Shown one piece after another: positions 2,834 through 23,972 of a stretch of 24,000 nucleotides of DNA. Position 1 is the first letter of the stretch; each line of letters begins with the position of its first letter. This DNA comes from Roseobacter sp. MED193 (GTDB lineage: Bacteria > Pseudomonadota > Alphaproteobacteria > Rhodobacterales > Rhodobacteraceae). Below the pieces are notes generated by a model. The model was not told where the DNA came from and searched no databases. It saw only the letters and a list, made by a program, of their open reading frames with translations. The stretch spans positions 717,343 through 741,342 of the forward strand of contig NZ_CH902583.1 of assembly GCF_000152965.1 (NCBI RefSeq). Direction: 5' to 3'. The position numbers and the translations under genes were made by a program.

Positions 2834-2841
<8 letters not shown>

Positions 2842-6586: not shown

Positions 6587-6606
6587 CCTAACCGGACCAA
6601 AGTGCC

Positions 6607-7266: not shown

Positions 7267-7337
7267 GTTTTCGAGGAAAAGATGTTGAATCTCAGAGGTT
7301 TTTTCCATGATCTACGACGATCGCACCGGGGCATCAC

Positions 7338-8021: not shown

Positions 8022-8057
8022 AAAGGCTGAGCCGTGGAACTCCTGCCTGTGGTGCGT

Positions 8058-8465: not shown

Positions 8466-8716
8466 CAATCTGCTTCCTGTTCTTGGTGGCGACAATTGGT
8501 CTGCGCTCCTCTCGACCTTCATCAAAAGGTGCCTGCCAAACGAAAGTTCCGGGCAGGGTTGCATATAAGCATCAATTTGAATTGGGTACGACAAGAAATT
8601 CAAAAAATAGCTTATCAGTTCCGAGGATTAGCTCTTGTGGCAGTCGCCACTTCCGGCCCAAAGTCGCACGAAACCTCTTGTCCCTAACTGGGGCACATCA
8701 TAATGGCGGAGATCTC

Positions 8717-9151: not shown

Positions 9152-9192
9152 TTTCACCCCAGCTGGGTATTGCCCCCGGTTCATGCCGACAG

Positions 9193-9813
9193 CTAGGTGC
9201 GCTTTGCCCGCTGCCACTCACCGGCCTCATCGCGAGAAAAGAACCCCTTCTTGTCTGCATTCTGGCGATCATCTTCGCTCAGTCGCTCTGCCCCGTATTC
9301 CACACCAAGCTCGAGCGGAATCATATTGGGAAGTGGATCAGGCTCCTGAGCCTGGATTTCTCTCAACTGGACCCAAACTTCATCGCTCATACGATGTCGC
9401 CAAACGCCGGTCAGCATGCGCCGAAACCGCAGGTCCAACCGGGCCTGTGCCTGATAATGGGGGATCATTGAACCGTGATGCGCCAATTGGTGCTCGGCGA
9501 GCTCACAGGCAATCATATGAAGGTGATCATCAGAGCAGGCCTCTGTCATCGCATCAAGCATGAAGTTCCAAAGTCCATGGGGGTGGGCCCAGAAACAGAT
9601 GGTGACCACCCACTGCCCAATACCCCCTTTGGCAGCCCACCCGCTTAGATGCTGGCAGGCCTCCTGCAACACCTCTTGGGACACAGGCATTTCATGGACA
9701 TATGCAAATGCCCTAAGACGTTCTTCGATGTTCTTATTGTCAGCAGGACGGGTTTCTGCTTCCAGCCAGTATTTCGCTAGGAGCCGTTGAAACGAAACTG
9801 ATGTTTGAGTCAA
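9193..9813 (-). CDS. hypothetical protein (206 aa)
   Basis: Clean ORF with protein-like composition. It is His/Trp-rich ('FWAHPHGLWNF', 'LAEHQLAHHG'). No family recognised. Confidence 0.5.
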   Translation of the reverse strand: MTQTSVSFQRLLAKYWLEAETRPADNKNIEERLRAFAYVHEMPVSQEVLQEACQHLSGWAAKGGIGQWVVTICFWAHPHGLWNFMLDAMTEACSDDHLHMIACELAEHQLAHHGSMIPHYQAQARLDLRFRRMLTGVWRHRMSDEVWVQLREIQAQEPDPLPNMIPLELGVEYGAERLSEDDRQNADKKGFFSRDEAGEWQRAKRT

Positions 9814-9926
9814 AAATTTCCGTGGCTATCACCACGTTGTCTGAAGGGCGTTTCAATCTACGCCGGGGCTGTAAGTACCCTCACACAAAGCCAATCATCA
9901 ACCTATGTCAAGATTGATAACTACTT

Positions 9927-10610
9927 TCACAACTTGACCAGCCTGCCCTGCTCCAGCTTGACCCGGCGGTCCATCCGGGCGGCCAGCTCGTGGTTATGGG
10001 TGGCCACCAGCGCCGACAGGCCGGTACCGGCCACCAAATCCATCAACGCGGCAAAGACCTGATCCGAGGTTCCCGGGTCCAGATTTCCGGTGGGTTCATC
10101 TGCCAACAACACGCGGGGGCTATTCGCCAGCGCCCGGCAAAAGGCGACCCGCTGCTGTTCACCACCTGACAAAGCCGCAGGGCGATGCCCGGCGCGGTCA
10201 GCCAAGCCAACCAGGGTCAAAAGCTCCTCGGCGCGGGCCTCCGCCCCCGACTGCAATACGCCATTGGCAAGTTGAGGCAGGACAATGTTTTCCAACGCAG
10301 TGAACTCAGGCAAAAGGTGGTGGAACTGGTAAACAAACCCAACATCCTGACGCCGCAGACTGGTGCGCATCCCGTCGCCCTTACCACTGACGTCTTGCCC
10401 CGCCACCAGAACAGAGCCGTTATCCGGCACATCCAGCAACCCAGCGATATGCAATAGGGTGGATTTTCCTGCCCCCGAAGGCGCCACCAGCGCCACCATC
10501 TCCCCGGCATTCAAGGTCAGATCTATGCCGCGCAGCACATCTATCTGGTTCGCGCGCCCCTGATTGTAGGATTTGGTCACGGACTTCAGTTCTAATACAG
10601 CCTCACTCAT
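9927..10610 (-). CDS. lolD: lipoprotein-releasing ABC transporter ATP-binding protein
   Basis: Walker A 'APSGAGKST', signature '[15 protein letters not shown]' and Walker B '[11 protein letters not shown]'. It overlaps the upstream FtsX-type permease gene by 8 nt. Confidence 0.85.
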
Positions 10611-11889
10611 AACGCAGCGCCTCCACCGGGTTCAGCCGCGCGGCACGCCGGGCGGGGAAAATTGTCACCACAAAGGAAAGCCCCAGCGACAGCCCAACGG
10701 CTGACAGAACATCCGGCAGGTTCAACTCAGCCGGCAGCGCATAGATCCCCCGGATCGAGGGGTCCCAGACGCCGCCGCCCATCACAAAGTTCACAAAGGA
10801 AAAGATCGGATCAATATAGGTGGCAAAGAGACAGCCCAGAACCACGCCAAACAGCGTGCCCAAGACGCCAGTAAAGGCACCGCAGATGAAAAAGACCCGC
10901 ATCACCGATCCCTCGCTCAGCCCGATTGTGCGTAAGATACCAATATCGCGACCTTTGTTTTTCACCAGCATGATCAGGCCGGAAACGATATTCATCGTCG
11001 CAATCAGCACCAGGATCGACAGGATGATGAACATCACATTGTCCTCGACCTCCAGCGCGCGCAAAAAACCACCCGAGGCATCGCGCCAGGTCCAGACACC
11101 GACGGCGCCCCCGGCCGCGCGCAAAAGCGGCAGAACCTTCAGGTCCACCCCTTCTGGGTCTTCGATCATCACCTCGATCTCATCCGCAACGCCTTCGCGG
11201 TTAAAAAAGCTCTGAGCCTCACCAAAGGGCATGTAAAGGCGGGTCCGGTCGATGTCATAGCGCCCGGCAGTAAAGATGTAGACCACCTCATAGGCTTTGA
11301 CTCTGGGGCTGGTGCCAAAGGGGGTTTTGACGCCATTGGGCGAAATCAGCTTGATGCGATCGCCAACGCTGACCCCCAGCTCTCGCGCCACGCCGGAGCC
11401 AATGGCAACGCCCTCTTGGAAAAGGTCCAGATCGCCGATGGCACCATCACTTTGTGCCACGCCTGGGATCGTCATGATGCCAGCCTTGGCAATGCCAAAG
11501 ACCTCAACACCGGCGTTTCGCTGGCGTGCATTGGCCATGACCTGCCCCTTGACCAGCGGCGCCGCGCGGATCACGCCGGGCACCTGGGCCACGCGGGCCG
11601 CCATCTCGTCAAAATCTTTGATGTAGCGCTCAAAATGACCAGCCTCGTTCAGCTCCCCATGGGCGTAGAGCGTCACATGGGCGTTAGCGCCCAGAATGGT
11701 GCCGACGAACTCTGAACGAAACCCCGAGCGCACCGCCAGCGTGGCAATGAGCGCAAATACCGCCAGCGTAATGCCGATGAGGCTGATCCAGGTCATAACA
11801 GACACGCCGCCCTCGGCCCGTCGCGCCCGCAGGTATCGCCAGGCAATCATCCATTCAAATCGCGCAAACGGCGGGGGGGTGCTGGCCAT
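10603..11889 (-). CDS. lolC: lipoprotein-releasing ABC transporter permease (LolC/E family)
   Basis: 428-aa MacB/FtsX-type topology: N-terminal TM, large periplasmic domain and three C-terminal TMs, ending '[16 protein letters not shown]'. It is coupled to lolD. Confidence 0.82.
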
Positions 11890-12076
11890 GATGGCTCCTG
11901 CTCACAGTTTTTTCGCCAAACTGGGCTTTCCAGCGCGCAGGGTCAAGCCACCGGACGCTTTGGCAGCTCTGTGACGCGCCCTACCCGCACCGGATCAGCA
12001 AAAGACCGCTGCCCAGCCTTGGCCCGGCTCACCTGCGCTGCCACGCCCGACATATTTTGGGGAACCCCGCCACAAG

Positions 12077-12109
12077 TGACCCAGCAGGTTTGCACAAAAC
12101 GCTGGGTCA
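12077..12109. promoter_or_regulatory. 9-bp perfect inverted repeat in the lolC/OYE divergent intergenic region
   Basis: 'tgacccagc' at 12077-12085 is the reverse complement of 'gctgggtca' at 12101-12109, with a 15-nt spacer. Confidence 0.3.
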
Positions 12110-12159
12110 TTCGCGGTTTGACCTCAAGTAAAACCTTTCTCGATCCCGGGGACTGCTAT

Positions 12160-12174
12160 TTGATGCAGCATCAA
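12160..12174. promoter_or_regulatory. 15-nt perfect palindrome TTGATGCaGCATCAA, candidate operator upstream of the OYE gene
   Basis: Read directly. It ends 55 nt before the ATG at 12230. The half-sites TTGAT/ATCAA resemble CRP/FNR-family boxes, but the spacing is N5 rather than the canonical N4. Confidence 0.35.
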
Positions 12175-12229
12175 GACTGTGGCGCTCAACGCCAGCCCAC
12201 CCCGATATTGAACAAAAAAGGATGCCCCA

Positions 12230-13339
12230 ATGGACCGTGCCGAGACCCTGTTTACCCCTGTCGACCTAGGCAAACTCAGCGTCAAGAACCGAATTGCAAT
12301 GGCGCCGATGACCCGGACTTATTCGCCAGGAAACATCCCTAACGAGGCTGTGGTATCCTACTATCAGCGCCGTGCAGAAGGAGGCGTTGGGCTGATCATC
12401 ACCGAAGGTACCTTTGTCAACCACGAGGCCGCCAGCGGCTATCCGAATGTCCCCGCATTTTATGGCAAGGAGGCGCTTGCAGGATGGAAAAAGGTCGTCG
12501 ATGCGGTTCATGCCGCTGGGGGTAAGATTGCACCACAACTGTGGCATGTCGGGGCTATTCGTCGCCCCGGTATCATGCCAGGCGGCGACACACCCGGTCA
12601 CAGCCCAAGCGGTATGGCCAAGCCGGGCAAGGTGACGGGTCATGCCATGACGCAGGACGACATCGACAATGTCGTGGCTGCCTTTGCCCAGGCCGCTGCC
12701 GACGCCAAGGAAATCGGCTTTGACGCGATAGAGCTGCATGGCGCCCATGGTTATCTGATCGACCAGTTTTTCTGGGAAGGCACCAACCAGCGCACCGACG
12801 GTTATGGCGGAGATCTGGCACAACGCTCTCGCTTTGCACTGGAAATCGTCCGCGCCGTCCGCGCCGCCGTCGGCGACGACTTCCCGATTATCTTCCGTTT
12901 CTCCCAATGGAAGCAGCAGGACTATTCTGTGCGGCTTTGTGAGACACCCGAGGCCCTGCAGGCTTTCCTCACGCCATTGGCAGAGGCTGGGGTTGATATC
13001 TTCCACTGTTCCACCCGCCGCTTTTGGGAACCGGAGTTTGAAGGGAGCGATTTGAACCTGGCAGGCTGGGCGCGCAAACTGACTGGCAAGCCCACAATCA
13101 CCGTCGGCAGCGTCGGACTGAATGCCGATTTCCTGCCCGAAGATGGCACCGCAGATTTCAAAGCAGCTGAACCCGCCAGCCTGGACCGTCTGATTGAGCG
13201 GGCTGAGCGCAATGAGTTCGACCTTGTGGCCGTGGGCCGTGCCCTGATTGCCAATCCCGACTGGGCCAACCAGGTGGCGGAGGGCCAAACTGAAGGGCTG
13301 GTCGCCTTTGAGAAAAAAATGCTGCACGAGCTGCGCTGA
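12230..13339 (+). CDS. NADH:flavin oxidoreductase, Old Yellow Enzyme family
   Basis: 369-aa ORF. 'LKNRIAMAPMTR', 'GVGLIITEGT', 'QLWHVG' and 'GFDAIELHGAHGYLIDQF' are hallmark OYE/NemA-like motifs. Confidence 0.85.
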   Translation: MDRAETLFTPVDLGKLSVKNRIAMAPMTRTYSPGNIPNEAVVSYYQRRAEGGVGLIITEGTFVNHEAASGYPNVPAFYGKEALAGWKKVVDAVHAAGGKIAPQLWHVGAIRRPGIMPGGDTPGHSPSGMAKPGKVTGHAMTQDDIDNVVAAFAQAAADAKEIGFDAIELHGAHGYLIDQFFWEGTNQRTDGYGGDLAQRSRFALEIVRAVRAAVGDDFPIIFRFSQWKQQDYSVRLCETPEALQAFLTPLAEAGVDIFHCSTRRFWEPEFEGSDLNLAGWARKLTGKPTITVGSVGLNADFLPEDGTADFKAAEPASLDRLIERAERNEFDLVAVGRALIANPDWANQVAEGQTEGLVAFEKKMLHELR

Positions 13340-13371
13340 GGTAAACTCAGCCTCCAGGCACCCTCATTGGG

Positions 13372-13401
13372 TTACCAACCAGCGCATCCTTTGGTTGGTA
13401 A
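13372..13401. other. 10-bp perfect hairpin between the OYE stop and the IS end
   Basis: 'ttaccaacca' at 13372-13381 pairs with 'tggttggtaa' at 13392-13401, with a 10-nt loop. It is AT-rich with no T-tract, so a terminator function is uncertain. Confidence 0.3.
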
Positions 13402-13410
13402 TGCCAGAAC

Positions 13411-13900
13411 TGAGCCTCCCCAACTGGACTGGTCCACCGCTATGTTTAGAAGACGGAGGACCAAGAATGGCAATCAAGCGACCGAAGCCCGAAGCCCGAA
13501 GCCCGAAGAGATTGTCTCGAAGTTACGACAGGTTGAAGTTTTGATGGGGCAAGGCATGCCCCGCCTGGATGCGATCAGACAGATCGGTGTCGTTGAGTAA
13601 ACCTATTATCGCTGGCGCAAGCAATATGGGGCAATGGGCGTGGATCAATTGAAGGAACTGAAGCGGCTCCAGAGGGAGAATGACCGTCTGAGGCGAGCTG
13701 TGTCGGATCTGACCTTGGACAAGCTGATCCTGACTGAGGCCGCAAAGGGAAACTACTAAGCCCCGCTCGTCGTCGCGCCTGCATCGATCATGTGCGCAGC
13801 CAGTTCAAAGTGTCTGAGCGCAGGGCCTGCCGCGTGCTGGGACAACACCGTTCCACACAAAGGCACATCCCGAGAGGCCGTGTCGATGAAGATCGTTTGT
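13411..13900 (+). mobile_element. IS3-family insertion sequence remnant (left end, orfA, first ~50 codons of orfB)
   Basis: The IRL-like terminus 'TGAGCCTCCCCAACTGG' starts at 13411. orfA encodes '...EEIVSKLRQVEVLMGQGMPRLDAIRQIGVVE*TYYRWRKQYGAMGVDQLKELKRLQRENDRLRRAVSDLTLDKLILTEAAKGNY'. The -1 frame continues 'LLSPARRRACIDHVRSQFKVSERRACRVLGQHRSTQRHIPRGRVDEDRL', and the similarity then stops near 13900. No right end is present. Confidence 0.8.
13467..13759 (+). pseudogene. IS3-family orfA (HTH transposase subunit), disrupted
   Basis: ATG at 13467 follows GGAGGA. A 14-nt expansion of the 7-nt unit 'gaagccc' (13484-13508) shifts the frame. There is an in-frame TAA at 13598-13600 where homologues, from memory, have Gln ('GVSEQTYYRWR'). 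Confidence 0.75.
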
Positions 13901-13930
13901 ACCCCGATGGCCAACGGCCATGCACGGCAA

Positions 13931-13964
13931 CGCCGTCACTCCAAGCAACGCGGGAGTGACGGCG
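13931..13964. other. 12-bp perfect GC-rich hairpin
   Basis: 'cgccgtcactcc' at 13931-13942 pairs with 'ggagtgacggcg' at 13953-13964, with a 10-nt loop. It lies just beyond the IS truncation point. Confidence 0.4.
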
Positions 13965-14108
13965 CTTGGTTTGCCATGCTCACCAGCGTTCTTGAGAGAA
14001 AATGACGAGTGACGGGCAAATGACAGCCCAAACTGAGAAGATCCCCCCATCATTTTTGATCATTTCATCGAAAGAGTTGAGCGCGTCCATTATGATCGCG
14101 ACCGAACC

Positions 14109-14135
14109 AGAAAAAAGGGCAAAGCCCTCTTTTCT
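14109..14135. terminator. bidirectional-looking intrinsic terminator hairpin
   Basis: 'agaaaaaagggc' at 14109-14120 pairs with 'gccctcttttct' at 14124-14135 (one mismatch) around an aaa loop. An A-run on one side and a T-run on the other flank it. Confidence 0.4.
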
Positions 14136-14429
14136 CGAACCATCATACGCATTTCAAAAGGAGACACTGCATGATCACTGATCATCTTAAACCGCCGTGA
14201 GCGGTCTATTCACGAATATTCGGAAGACACACCGAAACCGCTGCACATCGCAGCACACAACCTGAAATCCCGCCTAAGGGCGTATTTCCGCCCATTGGGG
14301 CAACAGACATGAACGCCAAGGGCGCATATCTGTCTGGGCCAATTCCCGCTGTTGCGGACCGTCCAGCCTGAGGGCTGCCGGTTGGCCATCAACACTAAAC
14401 AATAATTGAAACAACAGAAAGAAAAGGAG

Positions 14430-15323
14430 ATGGATAATCTCACTATGGACTTGGTGCATCTCACCAAGCGTAACCGTGATGGTAGTTCTGGGACGCAGAA
14501 GAACCGCCAACGGGGGCTGACCGCGATGGCGGCAGAACTGAAGCACCTGGGCTACACGCTGAAAACAGCCCGCTCGATCAAGCCAAAGCATATCAACGCC
14601 CTGGTTGAACACTGGCGGGATACGGGGCTTACCAAAGCCACTATTCGCAACCGCATGAGCTGGCTTAGATGGTGGGCACAAAAGGTGGACAAGATCTCGA
14701 TCCTGGACAAGGACAACGCCACATATGAGTTGAACGACGACCGAACAGAGCGCACCAATATCGCGTTTAGTCTGCATCCAGATCAATTGAATGCGCTGAC
14801 AGATCGGCATGTTCAAGCGGCTGTTATGCTACAAGCTGCTTTTGGTCTTCGCCGGCAAGAGGCCATGAAGATCATCCCGAAAGACGCGATCAAGGCTGAC
14901 AGCCTGAAACTCAAAGGAAGTTGGACCAAAGGCGGGCGTCCGCGCACTATTCCGATCACGTCACAGCATCAACGTGTGGTGTTGTTGGCTATTCGTCAGA
15001 TCGTTGAGGATGGCAGTCTGGTCCCAACAGAACGCAGCTATGCCCAGCACATGCGAATTTATGAACGCCAAGTGCACAAGGCGGGCATCGCCCGCGCTCA
15101 CGGCCTGCGTCACAAATACGCGCAAGCTCGTTGTGAAAAGCTTACAGGCATGAAGTGCCCCATCAACGGCGGTCCTGATCGCTCTTTAATGTCAGAGGAT
15201 CAATACGAACTGGATCGCCAAGCTCGCCAAAGGATCTCCAAAGAGCTGGGTCACAACCGAATTGAAATCACAGATGTCTATCTGGGGCGTCTGCAACAGG
15301 GAGGTGCCGTGTCATGTTCGTGA
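14430..15323 (+). CDS. tyrosine site-specific recombinase (plasmid/phage 'integrase' family without classical SAM-like N-domain)
   Basis: The catalytic signature is read directly: 'AFGLRRQEA' (Arg), 'AHGLRHKYA' (HxxR) and 'LGHNRIEITDVYLGR' (His...Tyr). The start is ambiguous between TTG 14406, ATG 14430 and ATG 14445. AAGGAG lies at 14424-14429. Confidence 0.8.
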   Translation: MDNLTMDLVHLTKRNRDGSSGTQKNRQRGLTAMAAELKHLGYTLKTARSIKPKHINALVEHWRDTGLTKATIRNRMSWLRWWAQKVDKISILDKDNATYELNDDRTERTNIAFSLHPDQLNALTDRHVQAAVMLQAAFGLRRQEAMKIIPKDAIKADSLKLKGSWTKGGRPRTIPITSQHQRVVLLAIRQIVEDGSLVPTERSYAQHMRIYERQVHKAGIARAHGLRHKYAQARCEKLTGMKCPINGGPDRSLMSEDQYELDRQARQRISKELGHNRIEITDVYLGRLQQGGAVSCS

Positions 15324-15424
15324 GCTTGTTCATCATTCTAGGAGAAGTGATCTGGCTGATTGCGATTGGGCTTCAATCCGTCCTGCATGGGCTGGCCGTG
15401 CTGATCAATAAGCTGATCCGATGA
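15314..15424 (+). CDS. possible 36-aa hydrophobic peptide (not in ORF track)
   Basis: ATG at 15314 lies about 10 nt after GGGAGG (15298-15303) and overlaps the recombinase stop. Translation by hand gives 'MFVSLFIILGEVIWLIAIGLQSVLHGLAVLINKLIR*', a single TM-like helix with a basic tail. Confidence 0.3.
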   Translation: MFVSLFIILGEVIWLIAIGLQSVLHGLAVLINKLIR

Positions 15425-15520
15425 AGGGGCTATCATCTATAGGTTGCATTTTGTATGAAGGAACTACCCTGGGGCTTTCCTTGGGGCATCGCGATGCTCC
15501 TCACCATGAGGAGTATTGTG

Positions 15521-15709
15521 ATGAAAATGTTGAGCAGACGGCAGGTGACTGAACTGGTTCTGCACTCACCGCAACACGTTGCACGTTTGGAAGCGGCAGG
15601 CCGTCTCCCTGTAAGGGTAAAGCTGGGCCACAACCGCGTGGGGTGGGTTGAGGATGAAGTCTTGGACTGGCTTCAACAGCGCATCAATGTCCGCAATCAA
15701 CAACACTAA
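15521..15709 (+). CDS. AlpA-family HTH regulator/excisionase-like protein (62 aa)
   Basis: ATG at 15521 follows GAGGAG (15508-15513). 'LSRRQVTELVLHSPQHVARLEAAGRLPVRVKLGHNRVGWVEDEVLDWL' fits the AlpA/Phage_AlpA pattern (HTH, then 'FP.p.klg.r.v.W...ev..W'). Confidence 0.75.
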   Translation: MKMLSRRQVTELVLHSPQHVARLEAAGRLPVRVKLGHNRVGWVEDEVLDWLQQRINVRNQQH

Positions 15710-15726
15710 CTCTCCTTGGCGAGAGC

Positions 15727-15758
15727 GAGGGCTGGCCGAGAGGCCAGTCCTCTTTTTT
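15727..15758 (+). terminator. rho-independent terminator after the AlpA-like gene
   Basis: An 11-bp stem pairs 15727-15737 with 15742-15752 (one G-U) around a GAGA tetraloop. It is followed by TTTTTT at 15753-15758. Confidence 0.65.
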
Positions 15759-16122
15759 AACTGATGCGCGGGACGGACGAGGCGATAAACTATTACCAAC
15801 CCCAGGCTGGCCTGGGGCTAATATGACGCGAACAGCCCGTAGCGAACCTTCAGCACTAGACCAGCATATGGCGGCGCGGCCCGCCATTATGGCCATTCGT
15901 ACAGGTCGCGGCATTTTTTCCTGCTGAAATGTTAGATTTTCGGACTTTGTTAACGTTCGAAATACTCCGCCGCTTGTAGTCCCGTGAGACGACAGAACCC
16001 TTTCTTCCATTTTGAACTGAGATTAGTGTTACTATCTTACGGTACATAATTACAAATTAGATTGGATATTTCGCTAAATTGATTTATGGAACCCACAGAC
16101 TTTCGACACGGAACTTAAAGAT

Positions 16123-16872
16123 ATGCTAACAAAGAATTCCACGTTGATTTTTAACTATTTTGATGAGGGTCGGCGCTTGATGAGGGAACACCTAGAAAGC
16201 GATCCGTATGAGAGCCTCAAGCAGAACGTTTATTCGGCGTCTTTTTTATCGCTACTCGAACACACATTGACGCCGATGATGAGTGAGCGGCGTATTAGAG
16301 TGTGGCATTATACCCATCTCTTAAATGACGAGATTGCATCGATGCAAAGAAGGCTGGTTCCCTCTTCACTAATCGGACTCGAGCAGCGGCTTGAATCACT
16401 AATAAATAGAAGGGTAATTTCAAAACAAGAAGCACAGATCATATACGATCAGAGTCCATTTCACCAACAAGGGGGCTTACGGTCCAATCGGGTCTACACA
16501 ACTACGGTTCCTTTTTCACCGGAGTATCCGGGCGTTGTACCTCTTCTGCAGAGCTGGGGCGGAGAGTCGGCCTATTTTTGGCTGTCCGACGAAGTTATTG
16601 CAGCGAAATTGAAAACTATCGGGACGCCACGTATTGTGGAAATCGAAACGGCACTAGAGGATGAGATGAACGCGTATTCTTCCGCGAGGACGGCCACCGA
16701 AGCATGGGCTAGAACTCTCGACGTAGCCGTGGAAGTTTTGAGTAGTGATCTTGCAATCATTGATTGCTTGGATACAGCCAAAGTTCTGCGTGTACATACA
16801 GCGGGCGATGGTGTTTTCGAAAAATTAGCTGCAAGTTACCCATCTGAATATAAGTCACAATTCACCAATTGA
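16123..16872 (+). CDS. orphan hypothetical protein (249 aa), low GC
   Basis: Clean ORF at about 45% GC in a roughly 60% GC genome, with an AT-rich upstream region. No family recognised. The spaced motifs 'RVWHYTHLLN' (H62/T64), 'RVYTTTVPF' (Y125) and 'IVEIET' (E173/E175) are noted under findings. Confidence 0.6.
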   Translation: MLTKNSTLIFNYFDEGRRLMREHLESDPYESLKQNVYSASFLSLLEHTLTPMMSERRIRVWHYTHLLNDEIASMQRRLVPSSLIGLEQRLESLINRRVISKQEAQIIYDQSPFHQQGGLRSNRVYTTTVPFSPEYPGVVPLLQSWGGESAYFWLSDEVIAAKLKTIGTPRIVEIETALEDEMNAYSSARTATEAWARTLDVAVEVLSSDLAIIDCLDTAKVLRVHTAGDGVFEKLAASYPSEYKSQFTN

Positions 16873-17139
16873 TGCCCAGACATTGATATTCATGTTGGGC
16901 TCTGATCTGCCTTGAGGTGGTGCAGCGAGTGTTTCCCCTTCTTTTAAGTCTTTTGGTTTGGCCTTTGTACCATTTTGTAGAAAATTAGCTATGCGAACTT
17001 AGATATACTCACGTTAGAGCGGAAAAACTCGGGTGTTGAGCAAAGCCCTGCGGCAAGGTCTTTTTGTGATAGAGGCAGGCCGCAGTCTGGTAGGCTTGTA
17101 TGAAGGGAGGGCTGACTTGACCTGGATTATACATCAATT

Positions 17140-17178
17140 TCAGAAAGAAAAACGCGAAATCAACCTGGACTGAGGTTG
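17140..17178 (-). terminator. possible terminator of the HNH gene
   Basis: A 'caacct'/'aggttg' hairpin at 17161-17178 lies 3 nt after the stop on the minus strand. A T-rich tract ('cgtttttctttc') follows after an 8-nt gap. Confidence 0.3.
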
Positions 17179-17181
17179 TCC

Positions 17182-18267
17182 TCAAAATACCAAGAAGGCA
17201 AGTATAAGCGCAAGAACTATAAAGCTAATAATTGTGGAGAAAGGTCCACCACCTTCAGGTTGAGGGGGTTTTCCTTGCTCTAGTCTCTTAAAAATATGTC
17301 TTACTCTCGACTGCCAATTTTCAGGAAGTTCAAAATTTATTGTTCTGCTAATGGTCAGTGGTTCTTTGGAGCCAGATTCTTCATGCCTTATTGCTTCTTC
17401 CAGGGCGTCATTCAGAGTTTTTGGGATGCTGGCCAACTTTAATGCTTGCGAACCAAGCTGACCAGCAGCAACCGATTTGCATTCTTCGTACTCATCTGAG
17501 ACAATCGTAGATCTCACGCGCTCTTCGTGCGCAACAATCTGATCTAGCCAGTGAGACAATAGTTGGCAGGTGTGATGGATTTCCTCAATGTTACCTTCTT
17601 CTCCGCGATCACCCCAGCTTGAACTTAACCGGTCAAGCAGCTTTGAAGCTGGTTCTACCATCGCTAACATTTCTCGAATTCGTTGATCTAACCATGCTAG
17701 TAAGTCGTCGTCAGAAATGTGCTCGCCAACCGTATTGTACATTCCATCTTCAAGGTCTCTTAGTTTTCGAAAACTTGATTTGGTAAGGTATTGAAACAGT
17801 TCAGCCGTCAAGCGATATTCCCATCCTTGAGGCTTGTCGCGAACAATGCGTTTTATGATGGCTGGGTATTCTGCAAATTCATCAATAGCATTATCATCAA
17901 TCTCTGCTTGAATGCGATCACTTTCGCTGCCGAGTTCCTTTAAAGTGATTTCCTCCCGCTTCTCTCTCCACGCATATAAAAGTTCAGTGGAGTATAGGCT
18001 TTCATCGGCGTCAACTTTACGATGGCAATTTCGGCACAGCCAAATACCATTAGTAATCGCAGACCGCGCAAGGTTTGTTTGCGTGCCATCGTATCGAGGA
18101 GCGCTAGGGCGAGCCCCTGAAATATGAGCGGCCTCTCCAATGATGGTAGCTTTTTCGGAAGAGGAGTTTGGTCCAACCGTGCTCACACCGCAATCAATAT
18201 TTGAACATCGATAGCCAGCTCTTTTTGCTAACGTGTCTACAGTTTTCTTTGGAAAATCTGGGCTCAT
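17182..18267 (-). CDS. HNH endonuclease-domain protein with unknown helical domain and C-terminal membrane anchor (361 aa)
   Basis: The N-terminus has the HNH zinc-finger pattern C21-x4-C26 ... 'GEAAHI' (H48) ... 'NGIWLCRNCHRKVD' (N73, C78, C81, H82). An uncharacterised helical region of roughly 200 aa follows. The last 20 residues, 'PFSTIISFIVLALILAFLVF', are hydrophobic. The start is placed at ATG 18267, because the ORF-track extension to 18426 overlaps the neighbouring remnant and looks non-coding. The SD is weak. Confidence 0.7.
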   Translation of the reverse strand: MSPDFPKKTVDTLAKRAGYRCSNIDCGVSTVGPNSSSEKATIIGEAAHISGARPSAPRYDGTQTNLARSAITNGIWLCRNCHRKVDADESLYSTELLYAWREKREEITLKELGSESDRIQAEIDDNAIDEFAEYPAIIKRIVRDKPQGWEYRLTAELFQYLTKSSFRKLRDLEDGMYNTVGEHISDDDLLAWLDQRIREMLAMVEPASKLLDRLSSSWGDRGEEGNIEEIHHTCQLLSHWLDQIVAHEERVRSTIVSDEYEECKSVAAGQLGSQALKLASIPKTLNDALEEAIRHEESGSKEPLTISRTINFELPENWQSRVRHIFKRLEQGKPPQPEGGGPFSTIISFIVLALILAFLVF

Positions 18268-18319
18268 AGATGACGTCTTTTTGAACTTTTTCTTTACAGC
18301 TATTGACAAGTTTCCTTCT

Positions 18320-18751
18320 TCATTGATCAGGAAACAAACCCGGCATCCAGCGTCCAGCAAGAGATGCAGAAAAAACGAGCCTGAGTGGCGCACGTGTGCT
18401 GTCAGATGCAATGGCTCCTGTTTCAATCAGAGCGCCGGTCACTCTTCGGGCCGCACGGTCGCTGACACCTAGTATGCCGGGAATGTTGGATCTAGGAACA
18501 GTACCATTGTAGAGCAGTTCCCGTAGGACTAGGTCAGATTTTGACGGAAGTCTGCCCAAGCGCATTTCTTCTTCAGCCCACATTAATATGCGTTCTCGTA
18601 GAGCATCTGGTTTCATGAGTGTCGCCATGAAATCCACTTGGTCGATGCACACCCCAAGGAAAAACTCTACAAATGAGGCGAGAGCGCTTTCGCTAAGTGT
18701 ACCCCTATTGCTCTTTTCTGAACATAGGTACTCGCTTCGAAACTCAGCGAT
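18320..18751 (-). pseudogene. 5'-truncated remnant resembling the C-terminal wHTH region of Fic/DOC-family proteins
   Basis: The open frame extends upstream of the called GTG to a stop at 18752-18754. It reads 'IAEFRSEYLCSEKSNRGTLSESALASFVEFFLGVCIDQVDFMATLMKPDALRERILMWAEEEMRLGRLP...RAARRVTGALIETGAI...PLRLVFSASLAGRWMPGLFP'. This matches my memory of Fic-protein C-termini ('...FFL.VC.DQV.FM...P.L..RI...R.ARR.L..L...G.L...P..L.FP......W.PGLFP'). No Fic core 'HPFxxGNGR' is present. Confidence 0.45.
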
Positions 18752-18822
18752 TTACGAGACTAAAAAGAGACTAAATCCGCTGTTGGGCTTGCTCATTTCC
18801 TCATAAGTGCTTGATTTTGTTT

Positions 18823-18867
18823 GGAGGCGAGTACCGGAATCGAACCGGTGTACACGGATTTGCAATT
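18823..18867 (-). other. 3' half of tRNA-Cys(GCA) with no 5' half; putative attachment-site scar
   Basis: The minus strand reads 'aTTGCAAATCCGTGTACACCGGTTCGATTCCGGTACTCGCCTCCA'. That gives an anticodon loop uuGCAaa, an anticodon 3' stem, a T-arm ACCGG-TTCGATT-CCGGT, an acceptor 3' strand, discriminator U and an encoded CCA. It is close to E. coli tRNA-Cys as I recall it ('GGAUUGCAAAUCCGU...CCGGUUCGA.UCCGG'). Upstream sequence ('ttttaaga') cannot form the anticodon stem, D-arm or the acceptor 5' strand 'GGCGAGT'. Confidence 0.8.
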
Positions 18868-18993
18868 CTTAAAATCTTGTTTCCTGTGGGTTCCTGCGCT
18901 TTCAAAATCGTTTGAAACCATTGACTTATGAATTTTCAGGAATCAGGGTGAAGTCGTGTCTACAACTAAAAACGCCACCAAACCGCCACCAAA

Positions 18994-20097
18994 ATGCAAG
19001 CAAAACTCACAGAAACATATATCACCAAACTGAAGCACAAATCAGAACGGTATGATGTTCGCGACACGGTCGAGCGGGGCTTAGTGCTACGCGTCGGCAA
19101 GAAATTCGGCGCGAAACATTGGCATACGTTTGTTTATCGCGGATCAAAACGCCGAATGGTTCGCTTGGGATTATTCCCGCATATGTCGGTGCGTGATGCA
19201 CGCATGGCAGCCATCCAAGCCAAAGCGAATGCGAACGCTCCTTGGACACCTGAGCACATCAAAACGGTGGCTGATCTGTTCGAAGAGTATCGAAAAGCAC
19301 GAGAGCCAAAAATGCGCGCATGGCGTGACGTTCAATCCGCTTGGGATGTCTGGGGGGAGGAGTTCTTAGGTTATCTGAAATTGACCGATGTTTCGATCCA
19401 TCATGGGCGTGAACTACGCAATCATGTTTCAAAGAAATCGACTGAGCTGCGCGGGAGTGCCGTAATTAGATACATTCGACCTATGTTTTCATGGGCGGTT
19501 GATGAAAGTCTGATCGATGAAAATCCTTGGGCAGGATTGAAGGCTACGGCGATTGCCACACCGCGTGATCGAGTGTTGACGAATGAAGAATGGCAAAAGG
19601 TATGGGGTGCCACGTTTAAGGATAACCTCGGGGCGTATTTCAGGTTTCTGATGTTATCGGCGCAGCGCAAAGACAATGTTGCCAGCATGAAATGGGATGA
19701 GATTCAGGGCAATCTTTGGACGATCCCCGCTGAAAAATTCAAAGCGACAAAGAAGGAGAGCGCAAAAGCCCACGAGGTGCCGCTGACACCTGCGTTAATG
19801 GAGATTTTGGAAAATCAGCCCAAACGAGGGCCGTTTGTGTTTGGGCCAACCGGTTTAAAGCAGCTGCGACTCGGTTCACGTGAAAAGGACCGCTTGGCAA
19901 AGAAGGCAGGTGTAGATGACTGGCGGCTTCATGATTTGCGCCGAACCGCTGCAACGAGGATGACGGAGAACAAAATCCCAAGATTCATCGTTGAGCGCGT
20001 TCTTGGCCACGCGGACCGAAGCGTTACTGCGGTCTATGATCGGGCAAATTACAGAGAAGAAAAGAGGCAGGCATTAAACGAATTATCGAAAAACTGA
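18994..20097 (+). CDS. int: tyrosine integrase, P4-like (DUF4102-type N-terminus)
   Basis: 367-aa ORF. The N-terminus 'KLTETYITKLKHKSERYDVRDTVERGLVLRVGKKFGAKHW' fits the P4-integrase arm-binding domain pattern. The catalytic residues are 'SAQRKDNV' (Arg), 'LHDLRRTAATRM' (HxxR) and 'VLGHADRSVTAVYDRANY' (His...Tyr). It lies 126 nt from the tRNA-Cys fragment. Confidence 0.9.
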   Translation: MQAKLTETYITKLKHKSERYDVRDTVERGLVLRVGKKFGAKHWHTFVYRGSKRRMVRLGLFPHMSVRDARMAAIQAKANANAPWTPEHIKTVADLFEEYRKAREPKMRAWRDVQSAWDVWGEEFLGYLKLTDVSIHHGRELRNHVSKKSTELRGSAVIRYIRPMFSWAVDESLIDENPWAGLKATAIATPRDRVLTNEEWQKVWGATFKDNLGAYFRFLMLSAQRKDNVASMKWDEIQGNLWTIPAEKFKATKKESAKAHEVPLTPALMEILENQPKRGPFVFGPTGLKQLRLGSREKDRLAKKAGVDDWRLHDLRRTAATRMTENKIPRFIVERVLGHADRSVTAVYDRANYREEKRQALNELSKN

Positions 20098-20132: not shown

Positions 20133-20909
20133 GTGAACTATTTTATTGATCAGAATCTTGGGAGTGATGTGTATTCAAACAGGGGCGACTTTTCTTTTGA
20201 TGGGCCAGTCGTTGAACCTGAGATGGATGCTTTCGATGCGCAAAATCGAGTTGTGGCCATCGCGGATCACTACACGGCGATCATAAATTCGAGCGAAACT
20301 GTTCTTTTCTATCTTTGCTTTGACCTGTCTATCGGAATCGTTAAGCGAAAGACTGGGTATGCGATGGATCCGATTTGGGCCAACGGCGTCTATGAAGCAG
20401 CGAAAGTCGATTTCAAAGTGTACACGCGTTTGGCTGAAGTGGTCAGTGAAAACCTCACCTTGAATGTTGCAGTTCCAGCAAAATTGAGAGTTTTCGCTGG
20501 CGAGGTAATGTCAGGGATGTTTCCGGTTCCTAACAAACAGGGGCCAGCGATTACACGAGACAAATTGCGCAACTTGGCAATCTTTGAGAGCGTAGATTTC
20601 CTATGTGAGAAGTTGGGGATGCAATTTGAATCGGACGCGAAGGAAACGTGCCCGAATGCGACCGCTTTGGTGTCTGACGGTTTTTCCCATGTCGAATATG
20701 TGAATAGCAGCTTGGGCAAGCCGACGCCCAGCGTCATCAAGCGCATCTGGAAAAGAGAACACCGCGCGCAAATGCGCTATGAGGTGTCAATGCTGCGATG
20801 GCTTGAAAATAAAGAGAAATCAAACAGGTGGTATAAAAAATTCGGATTTATGTTCTGGATGAACAGAAATCTCCAAAATCTAAACACATGCGTTTCCCGG
20901 CAACGCTAA
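20133..20909 (+). CDS. orphan hypothetical protein (up to 258 aa)
   Basis: Clean low-GC ORF directly downstream of int. The called start at 20133 is a GTG without an SD. Alternatives are GTG 20169 (after GGGAG) and ATG 20223. No motif recognised. Confidence 0.5.
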   Translation: MNYFIDQNLGSDVYSNRGDFSFDGPVVEPEMDAFDAQNRVVAIADHYTAIINSSETVLFYLCFDLSIGIVKRKTGYAMDPIWANGVYEAAKVDFKVYTRLAEVVSENLTLNVAVPAKLRVFAGEVMSGMFPVPNKQGPAITRDKLRNLAIFESVDFLCEKLGMQFESDAKETCPNATALVSDGFSHVEYVNSSLGKPTPSVIKRIWKREHRAQMRYEVSMLRWLENKEKSNRWYKKFGFMFWMNRNLQNLNTCVSRQR

Positions 20910-20948
20910 TCATTCTGAGTGCATGCAGATGAATCACAGGAGTCAGCG

Positions 20949-21164
20949 ATGCATGCAGAAGAAACACAGAATGACGAGTTGCAGGAGTACTACCGCGCCG
21001 CAGAGGCCGCCGCCTATCTGAAGATATCCGAAAGCCAACTTTCCAAGTTGCGGATGCAGAAAAACCGCGCACGTGGTCCTAAGTTTGCCAATATCGCAGG
21101 TTGCATCCTGTATCGGCGCGTAGATTTGGATGCTTGGATCCTGTCGAAGATCGTTTCTGCATAG
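20949..21164 (+). CDS. excisionase-family/MerR-like HTH DNA-binding protein (71 aa)
   Basis: ATG at 20949 lies 7 nt after AGGAG (20937-20941). 'YYRAAEAAAYLKISESQLSKLRMQKNRARGPKFANIAGCILYRRVDLDAWI' fits the HTH_17/excisionase pattern. Confidence 0.7.
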   Translation: MHAEETQNDELQEYYRAAEAAAYLKISESQLSKLRMQKNRARGPKFANIAGCILYRRVDLDAWILSKIVSA

Positions 21165-21175
21165 CGGGGGCGATC

Positions 21176-21964
21176 ATGGCAGTGAAATACTACGCACAGA
21201 TCGACTTTGATCTGTTTTCAAACCCAAAATATCGAGCGCTTTCGTCCAATGATATCCGTTACATTTATCTGGCGGCGCATTGTTCGAAACTGAGTAACTA
21301 CATTGGTCTGTTTCGCTATCCAGTAGATATTTGGAGCTACGATGCGAGTGCCAAGCCGCTAGAGATAGAGGCCGCAATTTCTGAACTTCAGCGTTGCGAC
21401 CTCATAGAATACGACTTTGAATATCAAACGCTGCGTCTGGTTGGCTGGTTCAGTTCCCTGAATGCCCCGAACAATGGCAACCAAATGAAAGGCCACATCA
21501 AGAGCTTTTCGGGTTTGCCAACATGTCCGCCAGAAATGTTTTGTCGTGCCGTGTCCGAGTTCACGGTCTCAAGTTTCAAGCAGGCGTTGTCATGGGAAGA
21601 CCTAAGCCCGGAACACAAGAAAGTTCACGATGCCTTCAGGACGTTTTTGAAGGCGCAGTTTTTCAAATACGGCGATGACTTCAATCTGATCCTGATGGAC
21701 GAGATCAACAAACGCGGCAGGGTGACATTTGGCGCGATCCAGTCCTGCTATCAGATGTTGCCGAGCGAAGGGCTGCATAGCGTGCAACCCTTTCGCAAGG
21801 GTATCGAAACCCTTTCGAAACAAGAGAAGAAAAAAGAGGAAAAAACAATAAATCAAAAAACCTTAAACGTTTCGCCGCCTCGTAATTCCAGCGTCACAGA
21901 CAAGCCAAGTTCTTCAGCCCTCAATAGCGAGATCGCCAAACAGGCGCGCAAGGAGCTGATTTGA
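21176..21964 (+). CDS. hypothetical protein, possibly replisome-organizer/replication-initiator-like (262 aa)
   Basis: ATG at 21176 follows GCGGGGG. The N-terminus 'KYYAQIDFDLFSNPKYRALSSNDIRYIYLAAHC' resembles the phage replisome-organizer N-terminal pattern ('W.kl..d.fd..K...L......iYi.Ll'). The C-terminus is Lys/Glu/Ser-rich. The functional call is weak. Confidence 0.45.
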   Translation: MAVKYYAQIDFDLFSNPKYRALSSNDIRYIYLAAHCSKLSNYIGLFRYPVDIWSYDASAKPLEIEAAISELQRCDLIEYDFEYQTLRLVGWFSSLNAPNNGNQMKGHIKSFSGLPTCPPEMFCRAVSEFTVSSFKQALSWEDLSPEHKKVHDAFRTFLKAQFFKYGDDFNLILMDEINKRGRVTFGAIQSCYQMLPSEGLHSVQPFRKGIETLSKQEKKKEEKTINQKTLNVSPPRNSSVTDKPSSSALNSEIAKQARKELI

Positions 21965-22425
21965 TGTCCGGTTCCCCGCAAAGAGCAAGGTTACCCTCCG
22001 ATTACATCGGCGGGACTTGTGAGGGGCGGCAAGCCTCCCCTTCAAACCCCAACCCGACGCGCGCAAGCGGCGTCAAAGAGGGCCTTTCCGAGAGCGTGAT
22101 CTTTCGATGCACACCGTCGGAGAAGGCAGCGCTTGTGGCCAAAGCGCGCGCCGCTGGCCTGCCCAACGCCACGCTGATGCGTGAGGCCTTGGGGCTGGCT
22201 GAGGCACGTCGGCGCAAGCCCGTCCCCCGTGTTGACCCGAAGCTGACCTTTGCGATTGCCCGCGTCGGCGGCAACCTCAATCAGCTCTCCCGCTGGATCA
22301 ACGGAGCGGTCAAATCCGGCCGCGCGAGCCAGATCGATGCGCTCAAGGTCGCGACACAACTGGTGGTCATCGAGCGGCAGATGGCGCAGATCGTGGCGGC
22401 ACACACAGGCGATAACTGCGAATGA
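21964..22425 (+). CDS. mobC: MobC/MbeC-family relaxosome accessory protein (RHH)
   Basis: 'IFRCTPSEKAALVAKARAAGLPNATLMREALGL' (RHH) and 'ARVGGNLNQLSRWIN' (MobC signature). ATG 21964 overlaps the preceding stop (TGATG). An alternative in-frame GTG at 22096 would remove a low-complexity 44-aa N-terminus. The stop overlaps the relaxase start (ATGA). Confidence 0.8.
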   Translation: MSGSPQRARLPSDYIGGTCEGRQASPSNPNPTRASGVKEGLSESVIFRCTPSEKAALVAKARAAGLPNATLMREALGLAEARRRKPVPRVDPKLTFAIARVGGNLNQLSRWINGAVKSGRASQIDALKVATQLVVIERQMAQIVAAHTGDNCE

Positions 22426-23972
22426 TAATCTCGTTCTTCTCCACCGGCACAGGCGGCGGAGCTGCACCCGTCGACTACCTGATCGCACGCGAAGTTCTTG
22501 CCTATGACGAGAACCGCAATTTGATCCGCGACGACACCAGCAAACCGCAAACCAAGATCCGCGACCCGTTGCCTGAGGTGCTGCATGGTAACCCCGACCA
22601 AACCCGCGACCTGATCGACGCGAGCACCAACAAGTGGAGCTACACGGCGGGCGTCATCAGCTTTGCCGACAGCGATGATCCCAGTCCCGACGCCCAGCAA
22701 GAGGCCATTGAGCTATTTGAGGCTCTGGCCTTTGCTGGGCTGGACAGGGACCAATACGATTGTCTCTGGGTGCGCCACTCGCATGAAGGCAACGTCGAGC
22801 TGCACTTCTGCACGCCACGCCTTGAGCTCAGCACCGGCAAGGCGTTGAACATCGCACCGCCAGGCCATGAGAGCGCCTTTTCCAGCCTCCGCGATTTGAT
22901 GAACAAGACGCACGGTTGGGCAGACCCTTTGGACCCAGAACGCGCACGGGAGGTAAGGGCGACGATTGAGGCTCCAACCCGCGCACAGGGGCGCGAGGCG
23001 CTGCACGATTGGCTCCTCGATCAGATCAGCGTCGGCACCGTTACTGACCGTGCCAGCATGATCGACGCACTCACTGACGCGGGATTCGACATCCCCCGTG
23101 CCAGTAAGAATTACATCACCGCCCAAGACCCCGACACCGGCGAGCGCTGGCGTTTGAAAGGAGAGATTTTCCATGACGACTGGCAAGCCGAACCGCCTCG
23201 CCGAGAAATTGAACGCGGACCTGGAGATAGTACGCAGCGACCACGCCGCCTTGATGGCATCTCAGCTGGAGAGCTTCAGGAGCGATTTCAGCAGCATTGC
23301 GACCAGCGCGCTGCATACAATCGAGACCGATATCAGGTTCTTTCTCAGCGACAGCAAGAGCGAATTGCAGAGGCGGAGCGAGACGCTCCGGCGCTGGCTG
23401 ACGATATCGCCTTGGGTGATCGTGGGGCTGATCTTGGCGTGGATCGCCTCGACCGTGGCGGTGAGCTGGCTCTGGATGACCTTTTTGACGCATTCGGAAC
23501 TGACGGAACTGGGTCTGACACGGATCGAACACGCGGGGCAGATTTGGCTGACGCTGGATCCCGATCAGACCGAAATGAAAACCTGCACGATGGCGGGAAC
23601 ACCGATCATCTGCATCGAAGTCAGGGGGCAGTAAATGACGACGCCACTGACAGCCTTGGAGCGCGATTTGCTCGCCTGCGTCGAGCGATTGGTGACGGCC
23701 TGCGAAACCTCAGCGCAGGAATTGCGCGCTTTGGAAGCGCGCTCGACGAACGGGATCGAGAGCAAAGTGAATGGGTTGGCGCATTGCGTGGCGCTGCTGA
23801 TGAAATCGCATCTCTTGTCGGTCGCCACATTGGCCGACTTGCTGAGAGAGGAGCAGACCTACGAGACGCTTCAAGAGGGCTTAGAGGCCAGTTTGAAATT
23901 AGCGAAACACGCCGAGCAACGGCTGAACGAGGCCTGAGTGAACAAGAACGCGGCCATAGCCTCGGCCTTTAA
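22422..23972 (+). CDS. relaxase, ColE1 MbeA-like (MOB-HEN type)
   Basis: 516 aa, against my recollection of about 517 aa for ColE1 MbeA. The N-terminus 'MIISFFSTGTGGGAAPVDYLIA' parallels MbeA 'MIVKFHARGKGGGSGPVDYLLG', with the Tyr at position 19. 'LWVRHSHEGNVELHFCTP' aligns with the MbeA H-E-N motif region. The C-terminal half is low-complexity and overlapped by two nested genes, as in ColE1. Confidence 0.88.
   Translation: MIISFFSTGTGGGAAPVDYLIAREVLAYDENRNLIRDDTSKPQTKIRDPLPEVLHGNPDQTRDLIDASTNKWSYTAGVISFADSDDPSPDAQQEAIELFEALAFAGLDRDQYDCLWVRHSHEGNVELHFCTPRLELSTGKALNIAPPGHESAFSSLRDLMNKTHGWADPLDPERAREVRATIEAPTRAQGREALHDWLLDQISVGTVTDRASMIDALTDAGFDIPRASKNYITAQDPDTGERWRLKGEIFHDDWQAEPPRREIERGPGDSTQRPRRLDGISAGELQERFQQHCDQRAAYNRDRYQVLSQRQQERIAEAERDAPALADDIALGDRGADLGVDRLDRGGELALDDLFDAFGTDGTGSDTDRTRGADLADAGSRSDRNENLHDGGNTDHLHRSQGAVNDDATDSLGARFARLRRAIGDGLRNLSAGIARFGSALDERDREQSEWVGALRGAADEIASLVGRHIGRLAERGADLRDASRGLRGQFEISETRRATAERGLSEQERGHSLGL
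23173..23634 (+). CDS. MbeB/MobB-like mobilization protein nested in the relaxase gene (+1 frame)
   Basis: 153-aa ORF in an alternate frame. AGGAG at 23159-23163 lies 9 nt before the ATG. It has a central TM helix 'ISPWVIVGLILAWIASTVAVSWLWM' and a tail 'GLTRIEHAGQIWLTLDP', consistent with the MbeB architecture as I recall it. Confidence 0.65.
   Translation: MTTGKPNRLAEKLNADLEIVRSDHAALMASQLESFRSDFSSIATSALHTIETDIRFFLSDSKSELQRRSETLRRWLTISPWVIVGLILAWIASTVAVSWLWMTFLTHSELTELGLTRIEHAGQIWLTLDPDQTEMKTCTMAGTPIICIEVRGQ
23635..23937 (+). CDS. MbeD/MobD-like protein nested in the relaxase gene (+1 frame)
   Basis: The 100-aa ORF starts at the ATG immediately after the MbeB-like TAA (TAAATG). AGGGGG at 23623-23628 lies 6 nt upstream. 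The sequence is helical and coiled-coil-like ('LERDLLACVERLVTACETSAQELRALE'). Confidence 0.55.
   Translation: MTTPLTALERDLLACVERLVTACETSAQELRALEARSTNGIESKVNGLAHCVALLMKSHLLSVATLADLLREEQTYETLQEGLEASLKLAKHAEQRLNEA

Follow-up and report, generated by a model that had tools for sequence, protein, structure and literature searches.

Successive occupation of a single tRNA-Cys gene by two mobile elements in Roseobacter sp. MED193

Introduction

How half of a tRNA gene comes to stand alone in a bacterial genome, and which of the DNA on its two sides is inserted, are the questions raised by a short segment of Roseobacter sp. MED193. The segment lies within a stretch of 24,000 nucleotides (C1:717343-741342, where C1 is contig NZ_CH902583.1), hereafter the window, whose numbering is used unless C1 is named, and corresponds to the 3' part of tRNA-Cys(GCA). 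The original prediction, made from the letters of the window, read it as an att scar implying tandem accretion of islands at one tRNA gene, with an inserted element to its right and, to its left, the former downstream flank of the tRNA. Comparison of the locus with relatives that carry its separate parts, and with a contig that preserves the empty site, leads us to conclude that the fragment is very probably the attR of a 14.4-kb integrative mobilizable element (IME) seated in the only tRNA-Cys gene of the genome, beside the stump of an older tRNA-Cys island. The features on which this reading is built are collected in Table 1.

Table 1. Features of the window from left to right, with att and island assignments as read from sequence comparison
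Feature	Position	Strand	Remarks
Core chromosomal block, not island	1-13401		Part of 30.5-kb block C1:700125-730743
IS3-family remnant	13405-13900	+	orfA with in-frame stop; orfB cut after ~50 codons
Backbone piece of putative older island	13902-15755	+	Recombinase, small ORF, AlpA
Tyrosine recombinase, 297 aa (PF12834/PF12835)	14430-15323	+	Pfam Phage_int_SAM_2, Integrase_1
AlpA-type HTH	15455-15709	+	Pfam Phage_AlpA
249-aa ORF, function unknown, cargo	16123-16872	+	Called as gene in near-identical contigs L060, L061
HNH-domain protein, 361 aa, intact, cargo	17182-18267	-	Widespread ~360-aa family
5'-truncated Fic gene, C-terminal part only, cargo	18320-18751	-	Matches Fic of island L068
tRNA-proximal arm of putative older island	18706-18821		89% identical to DNA directly 3' of intact tRNA-Cys in L067
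Displaced 3' part of tRNA-Cys(GCA)	18822-18866	-	tRNA positions 30-74; very probable core of the IME's tRNA-distal att site (attR)
Integrase-proximal arm of IME	18867-18993	+	Between fragment and integrase start codon; kept in three other genera
P4-type tyrosine integrase, 367 aa, intact	18994-20097	+	Pfam Arm-DNA-bind_3 and Phage_integrase
IME ORFs without known function, 258 aa and 287 aa	within 20133-21964	+	Collinear in related elements
Small HTH_17-like ORF of IME	~20919-21164	+	Weak HTH_17 match
Relaxosome accessory protein (NikA-like/MobC)	21961-22425	+	Pfam NikA-like 2.4e-10, MobC 6.2e-05
MbeA-like relaxase	22422-23972	+	Pfam Relaxase; NCBIfam relax_MbeA_E1 3.3e-43, under model cut-off

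A partial tRNA-Cys gene and its intact counterpart

The fragment (C1:736164-736208) reads ATTGCAAATCCGTGTACACCGGTTCGATTCCGGTACTCGCCTCCA on the minus strand. It opens with the final base of the anticodon stem and the anticodon loop TTGCAAA (anticodon GCA), continues through the 3' strand of the anticodon stem, a 4-nt variable loop and a T arm with the T-loop TTCGATT, and closes with the 3' strand of the acceptor stem, discriminator U and the encoded CCA. The original prediction had recognized this isolated 3' half, with its loops, discriminator and CCA, but placed it one nucleotide off, since the range 18823-18867 leaves out the terminal A of CCA and takes in a base that does not match. It had also held that no full-length tRNA exists at this position, and none does: ARAGORN called zero tRNA genes in the whole window, and Rfam gave no tRNA match at the gathering threshold in the window, nor at E<=1 on 18600-19100, where the sole match was a weak one of the T arm to tmRNA (E=0.15). 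The AAGA that lies 5' of the fragment is unable to pair with TCCGT, the 3' strand of the anticodon stem. Given the absence of any tRNA model call and 5' bases that cannot pair, the fragment is a true partial gene.

The intact gene, expected on the minus strand beyond position 24000 and downstream of the mobilization genes, was found there by ARAGORN at C1 c[750648,750721], equivalent to window positions 33306-33379, and is the single tRNA-Cys gene among the 53 tRNA genes of the genome. A pattern search of the whole genome located the second copy of the fragment 14,484 bp rightward, inside this gene. The exact repeat extends over 46 nt (46/46; window 18821-18866) and comprises tRNA positions 30-74 plus one base; the two copies remain similar for ~17 nt past this identity, and no other long direct repeat occurs within 18 kb around the locus. 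Chance resemblance is excluded by the perfect identity to the sole tRNA-Cys, by the repeat being the only long one locally, and by the identical placement of the fragment in the three other genera described below.

Sequence conservation continues past the gene. The ~20 nt that follow the CCA of tRNA-Cys (window 18800-18821) are AAAATCAAnnACTTA-like and common to congeners and to other roseobacter genera, in intact genes and fragments alike, indicating that att similarity reaches beyond the gene itself; these ~20 nt may serve as a tRNA trailer signal or as a core-type binding site. The 3' half of tRNA-Cys occurs a third time, in degenerate form, 2.4 Mb away (C1:3195384-3195428, plus strand); this copy differs by two mismatches and, ahead of the trailer, a deletion of 2 nt. 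Its neighbors are two unknown ORFs on one side and a CMD/aldehyde dehydrogenase cluster on the other; no integrase lies near it, and it may be the relic of an old integration or of a rearrangement.

An integrative mobilizable element to the right of the fragment

The segment between the two tRNA-Cys copies is, by its gene content, a 14.4-kb IME: it carries an integrase, HTH_17 proteins, a NikA/MobC-type accessory protein and a relaxase, has no mating-pore genes, and agrees in content with the IME gene set reviewed in PMC5704250. Among the ORFs scanned in the 14.4 kb, none matched a family of type IV secretion system, mating-pore or coupling proteins. The integrase has both the arm-binding and the catalytic domains of the P4 type, and the motifs HDLRRT, LGH and the Y of VYDRANY can be read in its translation. 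The fragment lies 127 nt upstream of the integrase gene and antisense to it. The 258-aa and 287-aa ORFs belong to no Pfam, NCBIfam or PADLOC family. Past the window and up to the intact tRNA-Cys, the element continues with a second HTH_17 gene and then, as its type I R-M system, hsdM, hsdS, an IS3-split prrC and hsdR.

The prrC gene, a PrrC-family anticodon-nuclease gene between hsdS and hsdR (window-equivalent 27383-30028), matches the PADLOC PrrC model in both its N-terminal (1.5e-44) and its C-terminal (3.7e-86) pieces. The gene is presumably inactive, being interrupted by an IS3-family element of 1257 bp whose inverted ends measure 26 nt; near-identical copies of this element occur elsewhere in the genome. 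A second NikA/MobC and relaxase pair, 96% and 80% identical in amino acids to those of the IME, stands beside tRNA-Arg(CCT) at C1:2524870-2527979, which hints at a sibling of the IME, likewise mobilizable, at a different tRNA gene.

The left border of the IME was defined by its relatives. A scan of species genomes with the integrase identified proteins 88-93% identical in Amylibacter, Ascidiaceihabitans and Litoreibacter, and the DNA of these three elements is 76-81% identical to the window over 4.1-4.5 kb, beginning exactly at 18821/18822. In all three genera a tRNA-Cys fragment stands antisense immediately upstream of the integrase gene; similarity among the elements begins at the tRNA 3' end and extends rightward only, the left flanks being unrelated. 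In Litoreibacter (L055), the intact tRNA-Cys lies 9.7 kb rightward of the fragment. Since the similarity starts at the fragment and the left flanks differ, the fragment is the edge of an element, and the DNA to its right is inserted, as had been predicted. The same layout in three other genera also makes the location of the integrase at the tRNA-distal end a trait of the family.

A GC content of 44-50% runs unbroken across the fragment, from 15.5 to 21.5 kb, as it would if the fragment were an intact attP inside one larger element spanning both sides. We consider this extremely improbable: in three genera with unrelated left flanks, similarity to the relatives of the IME ends precisely at the fragment; the left side matches a different island family; and the empty-site contig carries the left side but lacks the right. 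In no genome seen did 15.5-18.8 kb and 18.9-21.5 kb occur as a unit at another site.

An empty site in a near-identical strain

Through the HNH protein of the left segment, a metagenome contig of 9,999 bp was found (L060; ENA ERZ925111) that is 99.7% identical to the window from 18866 down to 8934. At its end, a complete tRNA-Cys is fused directly to the left segment and the IME is absent, which makes this an empty site. Its assembly at k=127, a length above that of the 46-nt repeat, rules out a chimera induced by the repeat; in two Logan contigs from other runs the sequence breaks off within the repeat, as expected of a sequence present in two contexts. The original prediction had made the left DNA the former downstream flank of the tRNA, and L060 establishes that it was the immediate 3' flank of tRNA-Cys before the IME arrived. 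The presence of the IME is therefore polymorphic within the species.

L060 also fixes the order of events at the locus. It possesses the stump, the IS3 remnant and the junction with core DNA without the IME, and tRNA-Cys has therefore had two successive occupants, of which the IME is the later. The same contig bears on the proposal that the IME and the old stump arrived as one pre-formed composite, instead of through two successive integrations here. Although transfer of CIME-IME composites is known (PMC5704250), a 99.7%-identical strain with everything in place except the IME, together with a stump that has no distal att site through which a composite could excise, makes this highly improbable, and we retain successive integration.

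The 35 nt that lie 5' of tRNA-Cys in the contig (L060:1-35) are unlike those of MED193 and correspond to sequence in congener G010 and to an incomplete copy of the tRNA 5' part in G003. Polymorphism within the species thus extends to the 5' side of tRNA-Cys, and for the same reason the L060 strain does not equal MED193 minus the IME.

The stump of an older tRNA-Cys island

By comparison of sequences, the 4.9 kb to the left of the fragment (13902-18821) is identified as the stump left by an earlier tRNA-Cys island, one of a different family from the IME; because the window contains no remaining att copy that belongs to it, this origin rests on homology with complete relatives. In the island L067 (GCA_001681365.1), the recombinase, AlpA, cargo, TrwB-like and 238-aa genes are followed by an intact tRNA-Cys, in the orientation seen here. 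Window 13902-15755 is 80% identical in nucleotides to L067 9459-11313 and to L071/L072, with the same order and orientation relative to tRNA-Cys, and the match to L067 begins exactly at the end of the IS3 remnant. A further match to L067, at 89% nucleotide identity, covers window 18706-18866. At the other end, the arm at 18706-18821 is 94-95% identical to its counterpart 3' of tRNA-Cys in congener G006, whose island beside tRNA-Cys resembles L067 in its TrwB-like (90%), 238-aa (88%) and 59-aa (90% amino acid identity) proteins. A collinear backbone (80%, 1.86 kb) and a common arm (89-95%, ~115 nt) thus place the stump in the recombinase-AlpA family of tRNA-Cys islands that includes L067, G006 and L071, in keeping with the original proposal of an older island at the same tRNA.

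The general organization of this family was deduced from the contexts of recombinase homologues, which are common in Alphaproteobacteria in a large protein database; no close homologues at E<=1e-40 occur in 300 genomes of the family to which MED193 belongs. The backbone consists of a small integrase, H-NS or ArdA, the recombinase, an ORF of 36-42 aa and AlpA. It is followed by a variable defence cargo slot, occupied by Hachiman and R-M, by type I R-M or by Fic, and then by a TrwB-like coupling protein and a Replic_Relax gene. The distal end of the family is known from L071 only, a contig whose first bases belong to a 3' fragment of tRNA-Cys; this fragment lies ~140 nt upstream of, and antisense to, a P4-type integrase gene (product 29% identical to that of the IME), after which the backbone follows. 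Farther along, L071:2526-4110 contains another P4-like gene, of 422 aa on the minus strand, back to back with the 3' terminus of a tRNA other than tRNA-Cys (…GGTTCGAATCCTATCTCCCCGACCA), an arrangement like that of an integrase-att module; L072 starts at this GGTTCGAATCCTATCTCCCCGACCA fragment.

A 17-nt motif, GAGACTAAAAAGAGACT, is found on the arm at window 18759-18775 and again on the tRNA-proximal arms at L067:20383-20399 and L047:2566-2582, so that the arms of MED193, G006 and L067 all bear it. It recurs at L071:149-165, on the opposite arm and next to the P4-type integrase. We regard these copies as candidate arm-type integrase binding sites.

Set against its complete relatives, the stump retains the tRNA-proximal arm, three cargo genes (the 249-aa ORF, HNH and truncated Fic) and the AlpA-recombinase backbone. 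The Fic remnant is 70% identical in amino acids to residues 270-394 of the 395-aa Fic in the equivalent slot of island L068, with no Fic-domain match in Pfam; residues 1-115 of the HNH protein give PADLOC matches of the HNH effector type, and the 249-aa ORF has no family match in Pfam, NCBIfam or PADLOC. The TrwB-like and Replic_Relax genes are deleted from the MED193 copy of the island. A P4-type integrase such as stands at the distal end of L071 is absent from the stump, where the backbone recombinase alone remains, and tblastn did not find the distal half of the island elsewhere in the genome. A third att copy near the left boundary, for which the original prediction advised a search, does not exist: blastn-short over the genome, and Smith-Waterman comparison with shuffled sequences over the window, gave chance-level matches only, apart from the degenerate copy at C1:3195384-3195428.

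That absence, the core nature of 1-13401 and a trailer motif in the first ~20 nt after the tRNA that many congeners have are all as they should be if the left DNA were the ordinary native flank of tRNA-Cys and only one island had ever been inserted. The segment 13902-18821, however, was not found in 20 relatives apart from its final 113 nt in G006, has a GC content of 44-54% against 57-60% around it, and ends at the IS3 remnant; its recombinase-AlpA backbone and arm are 80-89% identical to islands that abut intact tRNA-Cys genes in L067 and G006. A native flank is accordingly very improbable, and the segment is best described as the remainder of an earlier island. The low GC, the Fic remnant and the HNH gene to which the original prediction had pointed are all real. 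The foreign character that it gave to the left DNA applies to 13902-18821 and not to the DNA left of 13401, which is conserved core sequence juxtaposed through rearrangement.

A plasmid origin of the left segment was considered and rejected, PLSDB yielding only three short matches. The only gathering-level Rfam match in the window is to the Ruegeria trans44 sRNA (116.8 bits, 15487-15752), which overlaps the AlpA-type ORF. This stretch is 77% conserved in L068-L070, and the trans44 'sRNA' family may be a piece of mobile-element backbone.

The IS3 junction and the order of the locus in the genus

The IS3 remnant, part of an element present in multiple copies in this and related genomes, sits between the older island and core DNA. 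Erosion of the distal end of the island had been ascribed to the IS3 and the recombinase module together. The IS3 remnant did truncate the old island; the recombinase and AlpA genes (14.4-15.8 kb) belong, instead, to the conserved backbone of the island itself.

The core DNA to the left forms part of a 30.5-kb block that is collinear and conserved across the genus but occupies another place in other species. Five species have it between homologues of MED193 3.98 Mb and 3.93 Mb, and in the closest relative, G004, its right end adjoins homologues of 3.95 Mb. The 5' flank of tRNA-Cys adjoins, in five congeners, the homologue of C1:699425-700052, and in G005 the 3' side of the gene leads to homologues of 761.4-767.4 kb. 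Relative to these flanking blocks (C1:700050-761400 compared), tRNA-Cys is inverted in MED193 and G004, and in MED193 the 30.5-kb core block has moved in between. The inverted tRNA-Cys/GGDEF-EAL arrangement is shared by G004 only. A single inversion was dropped as an explanation of the locus order, the genus being too rearranged here.

Extra tRNA-Cys 3' fragments in G007, G009, G012 and G010, ~5.5 kb from the gene in G009 and G012 and in three copies in G010, mark tRNA-Cys as an insertion hot spot in the genus. In congeners G003, G005 and G014, 5' halves of the gene are duplicated with their upstream flank.

A wider reading would make tRNA-Cys a serially rebuilt mosaic, with its 3' half replaced at least twice by mobile elements and its 5' half and promoter exchanged as well, to which these 5' copies and the polymorphic 5' flank in the 99.7%-identical strain would point. 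The att/IS hot spot would then have both inverted the locus and moved the 30-kb core block. We hold this to be unlikely; if true, one tRNA gene would be a recurrent breakpoint reshaping chromosome order in the genus.

Proposed course of events

The older island would have belonged to a family equipped with a P4-type integrase, a small integrase, H-NS, the recombinase-AlpA module, a defence slot, a TrwB-like protein and Replic_Relax, and its integration would have supplied tRNA-Cys with the 3' half that is now displaced. If so, the displaced half is the older island's copy and not original chromosomal sequence. Transfer genes would then have been lost through an internal deletion, and the distal half, with the island's own integrase and att copy, at the IS3-associated rearrangement that fused the stump to the core block.

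In the second integration, the P4-type integrase of the IME would have recombined its attP with the segment of tRNA-Cys from the anticodon loop to the 3' end, the attP carrying a copy of tRNA positions 30-74 and a trailer of ~20 nt. The IME's copy would thereby complete a working tRNA-Cys 14.5 kb rightward, the previous 3' half being pushed to the far end of the element. This displacement is borne out by the geometry of the locus, by the relatives and by the empty site. The crossover probably took place in or beside the anticodon loop, judging from an identity that begins at position 30 and within whose 46 nt the exact point is not locatable. With its integrase, HTH_17 proteins and identical repeats intact, the IME is probably still able to excise. 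Mobilization would proceed through the NikA/MobC-relaxase pair and depend on a type IV secretion system supplied by a helper; plasmids C2 and C3 of this genome, which carry VirB4 and VirD4 genes, are candidates for that role.

Tandem accretion of islands at one tRNA gene, the central claim of the original prediction, is thus supported both by the homology of the older island and by the empty site. The analysis delimits, to the base, a 14.4-kb mobilizable island with defence genes and the stump of its older neighbor, and identifies tRNA-Cys as a landing site shared by at least two element families across genera of the roseobacter group, which is useful for annotation and for the choice of an experimentally tractable IME.

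Comparison with known systems

In P4-like islands such as CP4-57 and KpLE2, the integrase usually lies beside the intact tRNA. The IME differs from these, its integrase being at the tRNA-distal end and antisense to the fragment. In the Escherichia coli prr locus, the gene order is hsdM-hsdS-prrC-hsdR. The cargo of the IME likewise has a PrrC-family gene between hsdS and hsdR, but unlike that of E. coli it is split by the IS3-family insertion. The mobilization module resembles those of the ColE1/MbeA type (MOB-HEN) in that a NikA/MobC accessory gene precedes an MbeA-like relaxase, with no coupling protein or type IV secretion system in the IME; the relaxase, which scores 148 bits against the 500-bit cut-off of the NCBIfam MbeA model, is a distant MbeA relative.

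A three-step model of IME tandem accretion with decayed elements has been described (Guedon et al. 2017, PMC5704250), and the same article cites Pavlovic et al. 2004 on accretion. The stump resembles the decayed element of this model, yet has decayed further than a CIME, since its distal att site is gone. Whereas a CIME retains both attL and attR, the stump keeps the tRNA-proximal att only, which is now a shared site; having lost the distal att site and the integrase, it is not a CIME and cannot be cis-mobilized. At its far end, unlike in the decayed element of the accretion model, an IS3-mediated junction ties it to a core block that has been translocated.

The locus as a whole conforms to the tDNA islands catalogued by Islander (Hudson, Lau and Williams 2015, PMC4383910), in which a segment with a tyrosine integrase is bounded by an intact tRNA gene and, in direct orientation, by the matching 3' fragment. 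Here the intact gene and the fragment lie on one replicon, both tRNA-sense on the minus strand, with the fragment 14.4 kb 3' of tRNA-Cys, and the integrase between them is matched by Xer models only far below their cut-offs. The older member has neither a fragment nor an integrase of its own, so that the pair is not a tandem array in Islander's strict sense. The identity block, running from the boundary of anticodon stem and loop to the 3' end, is like that of the anticodon-centred class, which accounts for 2083 of 3919 Islander islands. Att scars in tRNA genes and the accretion of islands are a well-established principle, of which this locus is a clean example; the two islands themselves, the IME and the older one, add new members to kinds of element already known.
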